Origin: Arthrobacter ginkgonis
GTDB taxonomy: Bacteria; Actinomycetota; Actinomycetes; Actinomycetales; Micrococcaceae
Reading direction: 5' to 3'
Assembly (NCBI RefSeq): GCF_039540195.1
Contig: NZ_BAABEO010000025.1
Coordinates: 83,631 to 107,630, forward strand
DNA length: 24,000 bases
Shown here: positions 9,093 to 15,826 of the stretch, piece after piece
How the letters are laid out: each line of letters opens with the position of its first letter
How positions within the stretch are numbered: position 1 is the stretch's first letter
Made by a program: the position numbers and the translations under genes
The notes under the pieces: generated by a model
The model's input: only the letters and a program-made list of their open reading frames with translations
What the model was told of the DNA's origin: nothing
Databases searched by the model: none

Positions 9093-10475
9093 CTACGGGG
9101 CTGCCGTCACGGCGTCCCCGGCGGCGGCCCCGCTGTTTTCGTCGCGGTTGCCTTCGTCCCGGCCCTTCCGTGCTGCCTGCGCAGCGGCCAGCGGAACGAA
9201 GAGGAAGGCCAGGGCGGCAAAGATTCCCGGGATGGCAAAGAAGAGGAAGTTCATCTGCACCGGGAGGCTGAGCGTCAGCAGGACGCCACCGAAGGTCGGT
9301 CCGACGATCGCCCCCAGCCGCCCGACGCCGGAGGCCAGCCCGATCGCCGTCGAGCGCATGAAGGACGGGTAGTACTGGGAGACGAAGGAGTAGGAAATGT
9401 TCTGGGCGCCCATGGTGCACGCACCGGTGATGAACACCAGCACCATCAGGATCGCCATGTTGTTGCCGAATCCCAGCAGCGTCAGCGAGACCGCCGAGAT
9501 CGCGAACATCGGGACGAGCACCTTCTTCACGCCCCACTTGTCGGCGAGCTTGCCCAGCACCAGGGTGCCGGCGATGGCTCCGACGTTCAGGACGATCATG
9601 AAGGTCAGGCTGGAGCCCAGGGCGTATCCGGCCTCCACCATCAGCTTGGGCAGCCAGGTCGAGACGCCGTTGATCATCAACAGGCACATGAAGAAGGCGA
9701 TCCAGATCATGATCGTTCCGAGCGCGCGGCGGTTCTTGAACAGGGCGCCCACCGGGCTACCCGCTTCCTTCTCCTGCAGGCCGGTGAATTCCGCGTCCGC
9801 CGAAAGGGCTGCGGTGGGGTTCACCTTGACCAGCGCCGCACGCAACTCACCGAGCCGCCCCTTCTCCAGGAGCATGGCCGGGGAGTCGACGAAGTACCTC
9901 ATCATGAACGGCAGGAACAGCAGGGGAAGGATGGCGACCCAGTAGACGGCATGCCAGCCGAAGGCGGGAAGCAGCAGCATGGAGACGAAGGCGGCCAGGA
10001 TGCCGCCCACGGAGAAGAAGCACATGACGACGGCGACCAGGGTGTTGGCGCGCCCCCTCGGTGCGTAATCGGTCAGCATCGCGATGAGGCAGGGCAGGAT
10101 GCCGCCGATGCCCAGACCTCCCAGGAAGCGCAGGACGGAGAACTCCAGGGGTCCCGGCGCGAAGCCGCACAGGGCCGAGGCGAGGGAAAAGAGGATGACG
10201 CTGGCCGTGAGGATCCTCTTCCTGCCGAACCGGTCCGCGAGGATTCCGAAGAGGATGGCGCCAACCATCATCCCGAAGATGCCGTAGCTGCCGATGGCCC
10301 CGGCCTGAATGGGATCCAGCGACCATTCCTTCATCAGCACCGGCAGGACCGATCCGTAAACGACCAGGTCATACATGTCGAAAGTGATGATGAAGCAGGC
10401 CCAGAACAGCATTCCGGCGTGGAAGCGGCCGAAACCCGCCCCGCCGATGAAATCCCTGATGTTGATGGTTGTCAT
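9093..10475 (-). CDS. MFS transporter, aromatic acid/H+ symporter (AAHS)-like
   Basis: 460-aa ORF with about 12 hydrophobic segments. It has the MFS loop 2-3 signature GILADRFGRKRIL and a central hydrophilic loop. Overall it resembles PcaK/BenK/MhpT-type transporters (recall only). Confidence 0.8.
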   Translation of the reverse strand: MTTINIRDFIGGAGFGRFHAGMLFWACFIITFDMYDLVVYGSVLPVLMKEWSLDPIQAGAIGSYGIFGMMVGAILFGILADRFGRKRILTASVILFSLASALCGFAPGPLEFSVLRFLGGLGIGGILPCLIAMLTDYAPRGRANTLVAVVMCFFSVGGILAAFVSMLLLPAFGWHAVYWVAILPLLFLPFMMRYFVDSPAMLLEKGRLGELRAALVKVNPTAALSADAEFTGLQEKEAGSPVGALFKNRRALGTIMIWIAFFMCLLMINGVSTWLPKLMVEAGYALGSSLTFMIVLNVGAIAGTLVLGKLADKWGVKKVLVPMFAISAVSLTLLGFGNNMAILMVLVFITGACTMGAQNISYSFVSQYYPSFMRSTAIGLASGVGRLGAIVGPTFGGVLLTLSLPVQMNFLFFAIPGIFAALAFLFVPLAAAQAARKGRDEGNRDENSGAAAGDAVTAAP

Positions 10476-10606: not shown

Positions 10607-11530
10607 TCAGTCCCGTTTCAGGAAGTCGCCTGTTTCCCGGAAGGCCCGGTGGAACTCCGGGATCCAGGAGAAGTTCTGGACGAAGCCGTGGTTGGACCCG
10701 GCGTAGCGGCTGACCGTGGCGTCGACGCCGGCCTCCTTGAGGCGGTAGCCGTAGAGTTCGCCCTCGTCGCGCAGGGGGTCGTACTCGGCCGTGATGACCA
10801 GGGCCGGCGGCAGGCCGGACAGGTCCTCGCGCTTGATGGGCGAGACGAGGGGATCGGCCGGATCCGCCCCGCTCTCGAGGTAGAAGGAGTTGAAGGGTTT
10901 GAGGCCCGCCGTCTCCAGCCCGTACCCTTCGGCGTTCTCCCGCAGCGAGGCGTAGCGGTCGACGTCGAAGTCCAGGTCCAGCGACGGGTAGAACAGCACC
11001 TGGTGCGTGATGCCGGCGAACCCGTCGTCGTGGGCCTTGGCGGCGACCGCGGCCACGAAGGTCCCGCCGGAACTGTCGCCGGCGATGGCGAGGTTCTTCC
11101 CGTCCCAGCCCAGCCTCTGCCCCTGCCCGGCGGCCCAGCGGACCACCCCGTAGCAGTCCTCCAGGCCCGCCGGGAAGGCGGCCTCGGGGGCCCGGCGGTA
11201 GCCCACGGAGATGACCTTGTGGCCGGTCTCCCTGGCCAGGGACCGCGCGACGTGGTCGTGGGTGTCCAGGCTGCCCAGGAAGAACGCGCCGCCGTGGAAG
11301 TACACCAGCAGGCCGTAGGTCTCCGCCTCCACCGGCGTGTAGATCCGCACGGGCACCTGTCCGGCTGAAGTCTGCAGGGTCAGGTCCTCAACGGAGTGCA
11401 GCGGCAGGCGCTCCTCCAGCGGGGCAACCATGGATTCCTCGTGCGCGCGCATGGCCTCCGGGTTCAGCGGAGAGCCATCCGGAGCAGGAAGGGTGGCGAG
11501 GATCTTGGCGATTTCGGGATGGATAGCCAT
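10607..11530 (-). CDS. Alpha/beta hydrolase, hormone-sensitive-lipase (family IV) type esterase
   Basis: Oxyanion motif VYFHGGAFFLGS (HGG), nucleophile elbow IAGDSSGGT (GDSxG), acid ITAEYDPLRDE, and histidine GSNHGF. Confidence 0.85.
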   Translation of the reverse strand: MAIHPEIAKILATLPAPDGSPLNPEAMRAHEESMVAPLEERLPLHSVEDLTLQTSAGQVPVRIYTPVEAETYGLLVYFHGGAFFLGSLDTHDHVARSLARETGHKVISVGYRRAPEAAFPAGLEDCYGVVRWAAGQGQRLGWDGKNLAIAGDSSGGTFVAAVAAKAHDDGFAGITHQVLFYPSLDLDFDVDRYASLRENAEGYGLETAGLKPFNSFYLESGADPADPLVSPIKREDLSGLPPALVITAEYDPLRDEGELYGYRLKEAGVDATVSRYAGSNHGFVQNFSWIPEFHRAFRETGDFLKRD

Positions 11531-11545
11531 TGGGCGACCTCGGCC

Positions 11546-12655
11546 TTACTGGTTGGCCGGGAACGCGGAGTCCACCGCGTCGGCGTGCCAGCCGAGGCGG
11601 GAGACGCGCTGCAGTTCATCCGTCACCGGTTTGCGGGTGGCCTGGTAGATCGACAGCGCGTCCTTCACGGAGTCGCCCTGCAGGAGCGCCTCGGCGAGGC
11701 CGTCGGCATCCAGGATCGCCGAGTTCGCGCCCTGGCCCTGATGGTGGAGCATCGCGTGGGCCGCATCGCCCAGCAGCGCGACGGAGTCGGTGTGCCACGA
11801 GTCGACCGAATCGATGTCGAACACCGAACGGCTCGTCACCTGGCTCAGGTCGAGCTCCCGGGCGACCTGGACGATCCGCTCATCGAAGCCTTCCAGGATC
11901 TTCACGAGGTACTCGGTCGAGATCTCCGGCGCCCACGAGTCGTCGTCGGACGGGGCCGTGATGTCGTAGGAGAGCTGCCCGCGGTGACGCAGCGGCAGGT
12001 TGTAGGCGATCGTGCCGTTCTCGCCCATGTAGAAGCGCGGGTTGTCGTCCGTCACCAGCCCGTGGGCGTCCTCGATCGAAATGACCGCACGGTAGGCGTG
12101 CTCGCCGGAGAACACCGGCTCCTTCTGCGAGAACAGTTGGTTGCGCACCGTCGAGCGGATGCCGTCGGCGCCGATCACGAGGTCGGCGGTGACTACCTCG
12201 CCGTTCGCGAAGGTCAGCGTCGCGTGGTCGCCGTTGTCCTCGATGGTCTCCAGCTTGTGGCCGAGGTGCACCATGCCCTCGGGGAGCACGCTGAGCAGGG
12301 CGTCGATGAAGTCCCCGCGGTGGATCATGCGGTTGTGGTTGACCTGCTCGTAGGCGTTCAGGAACGGCCACTCCTCGTTCGCCAGGACGTGCTTGCCGTC
12401 CGCGCTGAGGATCTCCAGGTGGTCGCTGGGCGAGCTCACCGCGGCGATCGCATCGAAGATGCCCCACTTGCGGAACAGTTCGACCGACGGCGGGCGCAGC
12501 CCGATGCCGGCGCCGACCTGGGCGAGGGCGGATGCCTGCTCATAGACGTGGACATTTTCCGCGCCGATGCTCTGCAGCGCCTTGGCCACGGAGGCCCCGC
12601 CGTAGCCGCCGCCGACGATGGCGATCTTGAGGTTCTGAATTTCCGAAGCCTTCAT
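11546..12655 (-). CDS. Class A FAD-dependent aromatic-ring monooxygenase (salicylate / 6-hydroxynicotinate hydroxylase-like)
   Basis: Real start ATG 12655 (MKASEIQNLKIAIVGGGYGGASVA), inside the over-extended track ORF 11546..13774. Motifs are GxGxxG, DG motif VIGADGIRSTVR, and GD motif LLGDAAHAMLHHQGQGANSAILDA. Confidence 0.85.
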   Translation of the reverse strand: MKASEIQNLKIAIVGGGYGGASVAKALQSIGAENVHVYEQASALAQVGAGIGLRPPSVELFRKWGIFDAIAAVSSPSDHLEILSADGKHVLANEEWPFLNAYEQVNHNRMIHRGDFIDALLSVLPEGMVHLGHKLETIEDNGDHATLTFANGEVVTADLVIGADGIRSTVRNQLFSQKEPVFSGEHAYRAVISIEDAHGLVTDDNPRFYMGENGTIAYNLPLRHRGQLSYDITAPSDDDSWAPEISTEYLVKILEGFDERIVQVARELDLSQVTSRSVFDIDSVDSWHTDSVALLGDAAHAMLHHQGQGANSAILDADGLAEALLQGDSVKDALSIYQATRKPVTDELQRVSRLGWHADAVDSAFPANQ

Positions 12656-12720: not shown

Positions 12721-13674
12721 TCAGGCCTGGATCGCCAGGAAGTCGGCAGGGTTCTCTTCGAAGATGGCCTTGAGCTGCGCGTCGCCGATGCCGTTGGTGC
12801 GCATGTCGGGGATCAGCACCTCGAAGATGTAGTTCACGGTGTGGCCCTTGACGCCGGGCCAGCCGAGCGGGCTGCAGTTGGCGTCGGCGGAGACGAGGAG
12901 CTGGTCGAGGTATCCCTTGCCCACCAGGTCGATGAAGTGGTCCATGCGGTCCTTGCGCGGACGGGCCCAGAACGGCGGGTCCGGGAGCTCGGTTTCGTAG
13001 CCGAAGGTGTCGAAGCCGATGCGGCCGCCTTCGCCCATGATCATTTCGCTGGGGGTGCTCGCCGCGTTCAGGCCGTCGTCGGCGTGCCCGAAGAGCACGC
13101 GGTCCAGCGGCAGGCCCTCCTCGCGGAAGATCGCGATCGCCGGCTCGGGGTCGATGGCCAGGTGGGTGAGGACCGGCACCCCGGTCACGACGGCGGCGCG
13201 GGCCGCTGCCCGGTAGATGCGCTTGTCCAGTTCGGTCATGCGGCCACCGCGGCTTACGCCGACCTTGATGATGCCGGCCTTGCTGCCGGTGTCCCCGATG
13301 CCCACGGTGATCTCGTGGATGAAGACCCGGGCCAGGTAGTCGACGGTCGCACGGGCGAAGTGCGGCAGCGCGGTGTCCCCGCCGACGAACCCGGTGCAGG
13401 CGACGATGTTGACGCCGGTCTTCCTGGACAGGGACTTGTAGTAGTCGATGTCGCGGCCGTTGCAGATGCCGGTGGCGTCGACGAAGGTCCCGCCGCCGTT
13501 TTCGTGGAACGTGCGCAGCTTCGGCACCGTCTCTTCGTAGGCCTGCTCGGGCGTCTTCCACCACTTGGAGTCCAGCTCGGACCCGGGCATGCCGTATCCG
13601 ATGTGCTCGTGGATGGCCACCAGGCCCAGTTCTTCGGCCGGGATCGTCCCCAGCACGGTGTTTACCTTGGTCAT
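12721..13674 (-). CDS. Phosphotriesterase-family (PTE/PLL-like) amidohydrolase with a canonical metal-ligand set
   Basis: VAIHEHI (HxH), AGIIKVGVS (candidate carboxylated Lys), VPVLTHLA (His), VLFGHADD (His), LLVSADAN (Asp). RBS GAGGGGA precedes the ATG at 13674. Confidence 0.8.
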   Translation of the reverse strand: MTKVNTVLGTIPAEELGLVAIHEHIGYGMPGSELDSKWWKTPEQAYEETVPKLRTFHENGGGTFVDATGICNGRDIDYYKSLSRKTGVNIVACTGFVGGDTALPHFARATVDYLARVFIHEITVGIGDTGSKAGIIKVGVSRGGRMTELDKRIYRAAARAAVVTGVPVLTHLAIDPEPAIAIFREEGLPLDRVLFGHADDGLNAASTPSEMIMGEGGRIGFDTFGYETELPDPPFWARPRKDRMDHFIDLVGKGYLDQLLVSADANCSPLGWPGVKGHTVNYIFEVLIPDMRTNGIGDAQLKAIFEENPADFLAIQA

Positions 13675-13721
13675 TACTGTCCCCTCGGGAAAAAGCTTGT
13701 TGGGTGTGTGCCGCCGCGCGT

Positions 13722-14705
13722 TCAGCGCACCGACAGCAGGTTGCGCGGGTTGTCGACGAGGATGCGCTGGGCATCCTCGTCGCTCAGGCCCTGCGACTTG
13801 AGGAAGGGCGCGAACGTGGACAGGACGTAGCTGTACGGCAGGTCGTAGTCCGGCAATCCCTTGGCCACGCCGATCGCGTTGCCGGACAGGATGATCTGGT
13901 GCCCGTGGCCGGCCGCGACGAGTTCGAGCACCAGGGCCGCGCGCTCGCGGTCGGTGAGGTAGTCGCCGTCGTCGTTCAGGCCGACGTGGTCCAGGCCCAC
14001 GAAGGCCCCCCGGCGGGCCACCTCATGGGCGGCGCCGGCGGCGTCCTTGCGGTCAAGGTCCCCCACAAGCACCCGGTCGGCCGGAATCTTCTCCTCCAGC
14101 ACGACGTCGAGGTCGTGCACGGCGTCGGCGCCGAAGCGGATGGACACCGGCACCCCGGTGTCCAGCGCGGCGCGGGCCGAACCGCGGAACAGGCTCTCCT
14201 CGGTGGCGGTCATGCCGCTGCGGTCGGCGGTGGTCGTGACGATGCCGGCGGCGGCACGGCGCTCAACGCGGGGGACCACCATGCCCTCGGTGACCTCCTT
14301 GGAGAAGAGGTCCGCGAACTTCTCGGCCGGCCACGGGGTCGGGGGGTTGGTCTGCGGCGTCAGAAAGTAGCCGCCGAGCTCCTCCTCGGGGCCAAGGCCC
14401 GTGGAGGCGACGATGTGCACGCCGGTAGAGCGGGACAGGGCCTCGTAGAGCTTGAGGTCGCGGCCGTGGAACATGCCTGTACTGTCGACGATGGTCTTTC
14501 CGCCCTGGGCGCGGAAGTCCGCCAGCTTCGCGGCCAGGATCTCGAAGATCTCCGCCCGGTCCATGGTGATGTCCGGGGCGTACTGGGCGCCGGGGAGCAC
14601 CGAGAGCAGGGCCTCGTGGACCCCGACAACACCCAATTCGTGAGCGGGGACGGGGCCAAGGACCGTGTTGACGGTTTGGCCGGTGACATTCGTTGTATCC
14701 GTCAT
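13722..14705 (-). CDS. PTE-family paralog with most metal-ligand positions substituted (possible pseudoenzyme or partner subunit)
   Basis: It is colinear by eye with the downstream PTE gene (TVNTVLG.VPA.ELG.V..HE..., GG.T.VD.TG...GRD...Y..LSR.TGV.IVA.TG, AAGIV, TGVPV, DRVL.G). The ligand positions read VHEALL (second His->Ala), GIVTTTA (Lys->Thr), VSIRFG (His->Arg), LVGDLDR (His->Asp) and ILSGNAI (Asp->Asn). The ATG at 14705 has GAAAGG 8 nt upstream; the track start is GTG at 14711. Confidence 0.7.
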   Translation of the reverse strand: MTDTTNVTGQTVNTVLGPVPAHELGVVGVHEALLSVLPGAQYAPDITMDRAEIFEILAAKLADFRAQGGKTIVDSTGMFHGRDLKLYEALSRSTGVHIVASTGLGPEEELGGYFLTPQTNPPTPWPAEKFADLFSKEVTEGMVVPRVERRAAAGIVTTTADRSGMTATEESLFRGSARAALDTGVPVSIRFGADAVHDLDVVLEEKIPADRVLVGDLDRKDAAGAAHEVARRGAFVGLDHVGLNDDGDYLTDRERAALVLELVAAGHGHQIILSGNAIGVAKGLPDYDLPYSYVLSTFAPFLKSQGLSDEDAQRILVDNPRNLLSVR

Positions 14706-14905
14706 TGGCACAACCTTTCGTCAGCGTCACGCCCTCATTGGCGTCACGCGCTGGGAAGGATCATGCACCGCGCGACCTCTGGATGGATCCTCGCCGAACT
14801 CGGTGCAGGCGATGTAAACGAAGGAGACAGCGCGCGGGGAGCCCAGGATCCGCTATGGACCCTAGTCCCCTGCTCGCGCCTGTGACCTTGATTACCTGCG
14901 TACTA

Positions 14906-14933
14906 GATTTACATGTTGTTATGCCAAAGTCAA
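14906..14933 (-). promoter_or_regulatory. Candidate sigma70-type promoter for the PTE operon, with an adjacent CTAG-centred element
   Basis: On the minus strand: TTGACT (14933-14928), a 16-nt spacer, then TAAATC (14911-14906). This is the only AT-rich stretch (14886-14935) in the gap between the GntR stop and the PTE-like start. GTACTAGAT (14899-14907) half-resembles the HutC/DasR-type core GTCTAGAC. Confidence 0.3.
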
Positions 14934-14985
14934 TGGAGAGTCTCCCGCAGCTGGCCGCGCTCCTCCTTCGGGGCCCGGCGGCGAC

Positions 14986-15729
14986 TCAGCGGCTGGTGGT
15001 GAACCGGTACTTGAAATCCTCGGCACGGTGCACCGCGGAACGCCATCCCGCGGGCAGGCCCCCGGTCGTGAAGAAGGTTGTCTCGATGACGAGCAACGGG
15101 CTCCCCTCGCCCACGCCGAAGGTCGCCGCCTGGCCGGCGGTTGCCGCCGTCGCCCAGGCTTCGTGCTCGGCCCGGTCGAGCGTGATGCCGAACTCCCGCT
15201 CCAGCAGCTCGAAGGCGGATCCCCGGTCTTCCAGTTCCTCAATCGAGGGGCTGAACTCCTCGGGCGCGCGAACATAGATGCTGGCTTCCACGAGAGGCTC
15301 GTTCTCGACCGAGATCAACCGGATGAAATGCAGGAGCCGTTCGTGCGCTTCGAGCCCCAAGAGGTCCCGAATCCGGGCGGGGGGTTCCACGCGTTCGATG
15401 CCGGAAACCGTCCCGGTCGGATGCAGTCCGCTGTCGGAGAGGTACTGGTACAGGGCCCCCGACCGCACGTCGGCCGGCCGCCGCACCCGGGCACCCGTGA
15501 CCGGGAACGTCCCCTTGCCTTGCTTCCTGTAGACGTACCCCTCGCTGACGAGCTCCTGGAGGGCCTGCCGGATGGGCGCCCGGCTGACGTCGAATCGGCC
15601 GAGCAGCTGCGCCTCGGTCATCGGCGTGTTGGGATCCACGTTTCCCTCGGCGATCTCCCTGCGCAGGATTTCCTTGATCTGCCGATACAGGGGTACCCCG
15701 GACGAGGGATCGAGCTCGCCATATGCCAT
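14986..15729 (-). CDS. GntR-family transcriptional regulator, HutC subfamily (wHTH + UTRA effector domain)
   Basis: Likely start ATG 15729 ([29 protein letters not shown]...[35 protein letters not shown]). The C-terminal half has a UTRA-like layout (chorismate-lyase fold pattern). Confidence 0.8.
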   Translation of the reverse strand: [247 protein letters not shown]

Positions 15730-15826
15730 CAGTCTTCTGTTCCTCCACGCCAGGTGCCACCGGGTTGTAGCCTGCAGGAAGTCAACCACAGAACGGCGAA
15801 AGCATAGGCGACGGCGTTCGGCAGCC

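Follow-up and report, generated by a model that had tools for sequence, protein, structure and literature searches.

A phosphotriesterase-family paralog without metal ligands, kept beside an intact copy in Arthrobacter ginkgonis, as a candidate non-catalytic partner subunit

Introduction

Why would a bacterium keep, directly in front of an intact gene of the phosphotriesterase (PTE) family, a second full-length gene of the same family whose protein has lost most of its metal-binding residues? The question is raised by a stretch of 24,000 nucleotides from Arthrobacter ginkgonis (contig NZ_BAABEO010000025.1, positions 83,631 to 107,630), in the following called the window, on whose minus strand the two genes stand in tandem. 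The upstream gene, encoding protein P0002, is referred to here as the degenerate copy and the downstream gene, encoding P0001, as the canonical copy. PTE-family enzymes are heavily studied with regard to organophosphate detoxification, quorum quenching and directed evolution. A first-pass annotation, made by eye from the sequence, had noticed the missing ligands and had offered three explanations for the upstream protein: a non-catalytic partner subunit, a binding protein or an enzyme with repurposed chemistry. Here we report that P0002 belongs to a clade of degenerate paralogs that stand beside a canonical copy wherever the gene context could be read, and we argue that it might be the non-catalytic subunit of a heteromeric enzyme.

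Results

The metal site of the two copies

The canonical gene (12721..13674, minus strand, 317 aa) and the degenerate gene (minus strand, 13722..14705 from an ATG, 327 aa, or 13722..14711 from a GTG, 329 aa) are matched by the PF02126 profile with 170.3 and 126.5 bits, respectively, at a cut-off of 22.4, with profile positions 4-297 of 298 covered. The two proteins are 31% identical to each other (BLASTP, E 1e-43). For P0002 the ATG at 14705 is the likelier start (GAAAGG stands 8 nt upstream, and a database homologue has 327 aa); residue numbers given here follow the 329-aa form. A competent site of a PTE or a phosphotriesterase-like lactonase (PLL) is composed of an HxH motif on strand 1, a carboxylated lysine or a glutamate on strand 4, one histidine each on strands 5 and 6 and an aspartate on strand 8. 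P0001 has the complete set (H22, H24, K137, H171, H197 and D264), and all 75 of its orthologues read HHKHHD, whereas P0002 keeps H32 and has A34, T159, R192, D218 and N278 at the other positions, so that five of the six ligands are replaced. By the ligand and family tests P0001 is a predicted metal-dependent hydrolase of the PTE/PLL type with a binuclear centre. P0002, though a member of the fold family, lacks the defining ligands, and neither 'phosphotriesterase' nor 'lactonase' is a suitable annotation for it.

BLASTP, phmmer alignments to solved PTE/PLL structures, MAFFT with 107 representatives of the family and hmmalign all give the same ligand columns. By eye, the first-pass annotation had set HEH/K/H/H/D of P0001 (in IHEHI, IIKVG, LTHLA, FGHADD and VSADAN) against HEA/T/R/D/N of P0002 (in VHEALL, IVTTTA, SIRFG, VGDLDR and LSGNAI) and had counted four to five replaced ligands. 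All of these motifs were located, the alignments to the PF02126 profile and to solved structures put the ligand positions where it had placed them, and the upper of its two counts is the true one. With five ligands gone in every alignment method, its view that the upstream protein is no conventional metallo-lactonase holds as well. A possible objection was that the ligands are conserved at shifted positions. For P0002, AlphaFold was run with a 51-row alignment of degenerate relatives; the model (predicted local distance difference test, pLDDT, 94.4; predicted template modelling score, pTM, 0.92) is a PTE barrel with a TM score of 0.83 to OpdA/P. diminuta PTE (Foldseek, E 3e-26). In it the replaced residues are located at the C-terminal ends of strands 1, 4, 5, 6 and 8 or directly behind them, which excludes that the ligands are merely shifted.

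Conservation and selection

Is the degenerate gene a decaying duplicate? When one genome per species was scanned with a 6-sequence alignment as query, orthologues of P0002 were found at 80 loci with 72-86% identity, in the genera Arthrobacter, Pseudarthrobacter, Paeniglutamicibacter, Citricoccus, Georgenia, Mycetocola, Streptomyces, Actinomadura, Microbispora, Streptosporangium, Sphaerisporangium, Rhodococcus, Nocardia, Geodermatophilus, Planosporangium, Actinoplanes and Dactylosporangium. A homologue search with P0002 gave more than 100 clusters at >80% identity. Ninety-nine of its 329 positions are invariant in 74 orthologues, and 152 positions of P0001 are invariant in 75. The median pairwise ratio of non-synonymous to synonymous substitution (dN/dS, NG86) is 0.29 for the degenerate copy, 0.23 for the canonical copy and 0.22 for the esterase of the same operon, values that are probably overestimates, since synonymous sites are themselves constrained in high-G+C genomes. 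Within the orthologues of P0002, H32 is invariant and R192 almost so, and a strand-3 loop on the catalytic face, G113-W127 (GGYFLTPQT.PP.PW), is invariant too. The degenerate copy is under purifying selection, and its fold is intact. The first-pass annotation had described a full-length protein with a conserved scaffold that is no pseudogene; the end-to-end match to PF02126, the dN/dS ratio, the identity kept across actinobacterial orders and the confident fold all agree with this description.

A clade of degenerate paralogs

HMMER, run in full against 1.84 billion cluster representatives, gave 107 full-length relatives. The pattern HHKHHD or HHEHHD is present in 73 of them; the other 34 have other patterns, nearly each of them different. 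In a FastTree phylogeny 28 degenerate representatives of 50%-identity clusters, P0002 included, form one group (SH-like support 95), and P0001 falls into a small sister group next to it. A set with support 99 is made up of all 34 degenerate rows and just four canonical ones, P0001 among them. As this is a quick tree with a midpoint root, we read it as indicating one or a few origins of the degenerate copies and not as a dated event.

The six columns that hold the ligands in canonical PTEs are no longer conserved in this clade. Their entropies among 28 non-redundant members (<60% identity) are 3.15, 3.18, 2.94, 2.97, 2.19 and 1.97 bits; four of the six lie within the top 6-18% of most variable columns and the other two near the median. 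The same columns show 0 bits in 102 canonical PTEs. No conserved polar residue or constellation specific to the clade was found in these 28 members, where the conserved positions are glycines, hydrophobic residues and scaffold residues common to canonical PTEs. That the ligand columns vary while no polar residue is newly conserved is what chiefly speaks against a repurposed chemistry at the former metal site.

Adjacency to a canonical copy

At more than 100 loci with readable context, from Actinomycetota, Bacillota and metagenomes, the degenerate gene lies 0-70 nt from a canonical one, either as a pair or in a four-gene array with three degenerate genes and one canonical gene; these counts contain many close relatives. 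Not one degenerate copy without an adjacent canonical copy was seen among them. The paired arrangement, whose spread the first-pass annotation had proposed to survey, recurs in many genera of Actinomycetota and in Bacillota. Within the Micrococcaceae, 17 of 201 sampled genomes have the orthologue, with the canonical PTE directly after it in all 17, and the same holds for all of the 80 scanned loci. The order degenerate PTE, canonical PTE, FAD monooxygenase, esterase was followed by tblastn across these 80 loci and is interrupted only on two contigs with an early end, on which the pair is still present. Genes for a GntR regulator and a transporter of the major facilitator superfamily (MFS) stand near the cassette at few loci only (GntR at L015, L040, L044, L048 and L061). 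The spacer between the two PTE genes measures 5-68 nt at 76 related loci, and in distant pairs the genes overlap or are 2 nt apart.

In a phylum-wide sample of 401 genomes the tandem pair occurs in three genomes only, each time with a canonical neighbour. The best-scoring 20 stand-alone PTE genes of this sample all carry HHKHHD or HHEHHD, and no second PTE gene was found within 4 kb of them. The 5.19-Mb genome of A. ginkgonis itself contains no PF02126 genes other than those for P0001 and P0002. Distant degenerate genes and arrays, from metagenomes, Virgibacillus and Neobacillus, have a canonical copy beside them in 7 of 7 cases. In addition, the identities of the two partners to their counterparts fall in step (degenerate/canonical 74/80%, 58/60%, 46/51% and 40/46%), which indicates that the pair has been inherited as a unit.

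The distant loci differ in their surroundings. A Streptomyces locus (L114) has the same cassette with a hydrolase of the metallo-beta-lactamase (MBL) fold and a CocE/NonD (Peptidase_S15) hydrolase in addition. In Virgibacillus sediminis and Neobacillus niacini (L116 and L117) a degenerate copy (HACQGN and HSTQGN, respectively) accompanies an HHKHHD copy, followed downstream by genes for a thiolase-like protein, a DUF35 protein, a CocE/NonD hydrolase, an MBL protein and a family I CoA-transferase. An MBL-fold hydrolase, a CocE/NonD hydrolase and a family I CoA-transferase thus recur around the pair at all three loci, which suggests a larger conserved catabolic pathway. One metagenome contig encodes, beside a degenerate (VASRND) and a canonical copy, a GntR/UTRA regulator, an Amidohydro_2 protein, an MBL protein, an alpha/beta hydrolase and an MFS transporter.

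On two unrelated contigs (L113:4021-8101 and L121:3856-7849) four PTE genes form a syntenic array, with stop and start codons partly overlapping. Its patterns are, for the two contigs in turn, RHSHDG/HQRDHG, RTLNHN/RTRGHG and HCRDHS/HHREHS, followed by HHKHHD. Neighbours of these arrays include BKACE, a CobW-type GTPase, Amidohydro_2, a short-chain dehydrogenase/reductase, AMP-ligases and a TctA transporter. On a further contig (L115:1735-3645) a natural fusion of 636 aa joins two complete canonical PTE domains, both HHKHHD, directly after a degenerate NFRSHG gene, and a second set on the same contig is composed of a degenerate gene (SHRSGG) and two canonical ones. Another candidate for a PTE-PTE fusion, P0268 (598 aa), was rejected, as it is a beta-helix with one PTE domain.

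Broken genes were seen at two loci. In a Micrococcaceae genome (L119, G118:C1:3354000-3366000) a frameshift near residue 177 interrupts the degenerate gene and an in-frame TGA its canonical neighbour, and at L120 (G047:C2:1383000-1393000) a frameshift near residue 64 affects the canonical gene only. We do not take these breaks as co-decay of the pair: their number is too small, and sequencing errors are too likely a cause.

Co-variation, partner signature and a model of the pair

The pairwise distances of the degenerate and the canonical protein, compared over 72 loci, correlate with r = 0.885, while the correlations with the esterase are 0.735 and 0.70 for the two proteins. The partial correlation of the PTE pair given the esterase is 0.76 (partial Mantel permutation p = 0.001). 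We regard this as soft evidence for a partnership, because neighbouring genes share their recombination history.

A sequence signature marks the canonical partners. A D-x-x-W-W motif behind the HxH motif, just after loop 1, is common to the canonical partners of degenerate copies and is missing both from the degenerate copies and from the 20 stand-alone canonical PTEs of the same phylum. In P0001 it lies in residues 30-39, and W38 and W39 are invariant in the 75 orthologues. Together with the invariant strand-3 loop of P0002 this signature is compatible with a heterodimer, which it fits and does not prove. A 'PG' motif of loop 1 was also considered as specific to the clade and was rejected, as stand-alone canonical PTEs have it too.

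At one relative (L015) the two genes can be read through in frame, and the resulting fusion was modelled with AlphaFold. Both barrels are folded (pTM 0.52, mean pLDDT 79.8) and their mutual placement is without confidence, the alignment being shallow (28 rows) and the linker of 22 residues artificial; for these reasons the model speaks neither for nor against a complex. Its second half is orthologous to P0001, the fold of which was modelled in this form only.

Operon layout

The window has a G+C content of ~65-75% and finds its closest homologues in Arthrobacter, Pseudarthrobacter and Paenarthrobacter. All genes described in this section lie on the minus strand. The operon is preceded by a gene for a GntR/HutC-type regulator (14986..15789; GntR helix-turn-helix, PF00392, and UTRA effector domain, PF07702). 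The degenerate PTE gene follows after a gap of 274 bp and is the first gene behind it; the first-pass annotation had it as the first gene of the operon. The intergenic region 14706..14985 is the probable promoter and operator of the operon and contains a TTGACT-like box and a ribosome-binding site, GAAAGG, 8 nt before the ATG at 14705; no strong sigma-70 match came out of a consensus scan of this region on the minus strand. Between the two PTE genes lies a spacer (13675..13721) that is 47 nt long and has a ribosome-binding site, GAGGGG, 6 nt before the ATG at 13674.

Another 65 nt separate the P0001 gene from that for a group-A FAD monooxygenase (11546..12655, start ATG 12655, 369 aa, PF01494), which among solved proteins is most similar to 6-hydroxynicotinate 3-monooxygenase, tropone 2-monooxygenase, salicylate hydroxylase and the decarboxylative vanillate/4-hydroxybenzoate hydroxylases. 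It is followed by a hormone-sensitive-lipase-type (family IV) alpha/beta esterase (10607..11530; PF07859, 224.8 bits), which matches solved family IV esterases with E 1e-63 and the NCBIfam model LipP1 with 313 bits, under the cut-off of 350. The gene behind the esterase (9093..10475; PF07690) encodes an MFS transporter of the aromatic acid/H+ symporter type, similar to MhpT and PcaK, with 321.8 bits to TIGR00895, also under the cut-off.

Discussion

In this analysis a full-length PTE-family protein without its metal ligands was found to be conserved, confidently folded in its model, under purifying selection and placed beside a canonical paralog at every readable locus. Catalytic residues lost from a fold that is kept under purifying selection, and obligate co-occurrence with an active paralog, are two features of a pseudoenzyme partner, a third being a physical complex with the active subunit. 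We favour the reading that P0002 belongs, as a non-catalytic subunit, to a heteromeric lactonase or esterase encoded by an operon for the catabolism of aromatic lactones or esters, at a probability of roughly 0.55. Among the three options of the first-pass annotation the data thus favour the non-catalytic partner, with the complex itself as our inference, and disfavour repurposed chemistry at the old site. According to such a scenario, an old duplication would have given rise to one paralog that kept the binuclear metal centre and another that lost it and retained the barrel and the pairing surface. Their products would form a heterodimer in which one site is live; in other lineages one live and three dead subunits would make up a larger assembly. 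The dead subunit might act as a stoichiometric partner that stabilizes the live one, and its invariant loop after strand 3 may shape the substrate pocket of the live subunit. As genes for a decarboxylating-type flavin hydroxylase, a family IV esterase and a transporter of the aromatic-acid type follow in the operon, the likely task is the hydrolysis of an aromatic lactone or ester, a substrate class that is plausible from the operon genes. The hydroxy-aromatic acid released would then undergo decarboxylative hydroxylation.

How does this pair compare with known systems? The solved relatives compared here are SsoPox, SisLac, VmoLac (4RDY), GsP (3F4C), GKL, Dr0930 (3FDK), P. diminuta PTE and OpdA. 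P0001 and P0002 share the Pfam family and the (beta/alpha)8 fold with the PLL/PTE enzymes, and the ligands of P0001 have nearly the same residue numbers as those of SisLac; identity to the solved members, however, is just ~26-35%. P0001 has TGFV where phmmer aligns TGFY of VmoLac, and the Tyr97 of SsoPox is presumably the conserved tyrosine after strand 3 that contacts the lactone and marks the PLLs. For this reason P0001, judged by this motif, may not be a lactonase for acyl-homoserine lactones. SsoPox, SisLac, DrOPH, GsP, GkL and P. diminuta PTE form homodimers, the interfaces of which measure ~1500-1770 square angstroms, adjoin the active sites and have a loop-1 residue (position 34) as a pivot contact (PMC3468530). 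In these described members, which are homo-oligomers, all subunits are active, whereas at our locus one co-encoded paralog has no metal site.

The nearest precedent comes from another family of the amidohydrolase superfamily. PyrC' of the Pseudomonas aspartate transcarbamoylase and the dihydroorotase-like domain of yeast URA2 are inactive dihydroorotase-like barrels, which have lost their metal ligands and are kept as structural, non-catalytic partners. There, however, the dead barrel is the partner of an unrelated enzyme, aspartate transcarbamoylase, while P0002 would be the partner of its own live paralog. Our literature search, with most subscription journals outside its reach, brought up no publication that deals with this cassette or with PTE-family proteins that are heteromeric or lack their ligands; the literature found always treats PTE-family enzymes as homo-oligomers of active subunits. 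As far as found, the pairing of a dead with a live copy within the PTE family is in no paper.

Several other explanations have to be weighed against a partner subunit. P0002 could act alone, either as a hydrolase or isomerase that needs no metal and catalyses a different pathway step or as a non-catalytic protein that binds substrate or product. LigI, the 2-pyrone-4,6-dicarboxylate lactonase, is a metal-independent enzyme of the amidohydrolase superfamily and gives a model for such a case, as its barrel hydrolyses a lactone without a metal. The confidently folded, intact barrel, the residues and the catalytic-face loop that the orthologues keep and the presence of several hydrolases in the operon, which makes separate steps conceivable, would all suit a protein with a task of its own. 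However, LigI belongs to the Amidohydro_2 family and keeps its conserved catalytic residues, whereas the degenerate clade keeps none at the old site and shows no alternative polar constellation. An independent enzyme would also have no need to adjoin a canonical PTE at every locus examined, and the co-variation, being tighter with the canonical PTE than with the esterase, is better explained by a partner. We thus consider it unlikely that P0002 acts alone. Somewhat less probable still is that it serves as a transient helper of the canonical enzyme, in folding, metal loading or lysine carboxylation, or as its inhibitor. Strict co-occurrence and co-variation would fit any obligate functional link, and a gene for a CobW-type metallochaperone follows one of the distant arrays. 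On the other hand, the fixed order of three different, individually conserved degenerate paralogs is more reminiscent of a structural assembly, expression of the genes is probably matched in view of their overlaps and short spacers, and we know of no precedent for such a helper in the PTE family. That the upstream gene is a functionless duplicate in decay is very improbable. The loss of five ligands and the broken genes of G118 could be seen as signs of decay, but the breaks affect both genes and may be sequencing errors; the frame is open over its full length in 74 of the analysed loci, with the invariant residues, dN/dS ratio, identity across orders and model confidence given above, and the clade extends to Bacillota at 46-58% identity.

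There are also observations that weigh against the partner subunit which we favour. The natural fusion on L115 unites two canonical domains and does not join a dead with a live one. Invariant H32, nearly invariant R192 and the invariant G113-W127 loop of P0002 would equally fit ligand binding or a metal-independent activity of its own. The correlation between the two PTE proteins may be inflated, and close relatives are numerous among the adjacent pairs.

In conclusion, we characterized a conserved and widespread pair of PTE-family genes. Dozens of actinobacterial genera have the four-gene cassette of degenerate PTE, canonical PTE, decarboxylating-type flavin hydroxylase and family IV esterase, and this cassette points to a catabolic pathway. 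More tentatively, with the odds somewhat against it, the PTE family might hold a whole branch of obligate hetero-oligomers, built as dead and live pairs or from four-gene arrays, in which a single metal site would sit in a scaffold of dead barrels that supply specificity loops. The pair studied here could then be the entry enzyme of an unrecognised pathway for aromatic lactones or esters, widespread in soil Actinomycetota and Bacillota. If it is true that dead paralogs exist only beside a live one, this would be a new quaternary design for the PTE family and for the amidohydrolase superfamily. It would account for tandem 'phosphotriesterase' annotations, and it would be a caution against expressing the live gene alone.

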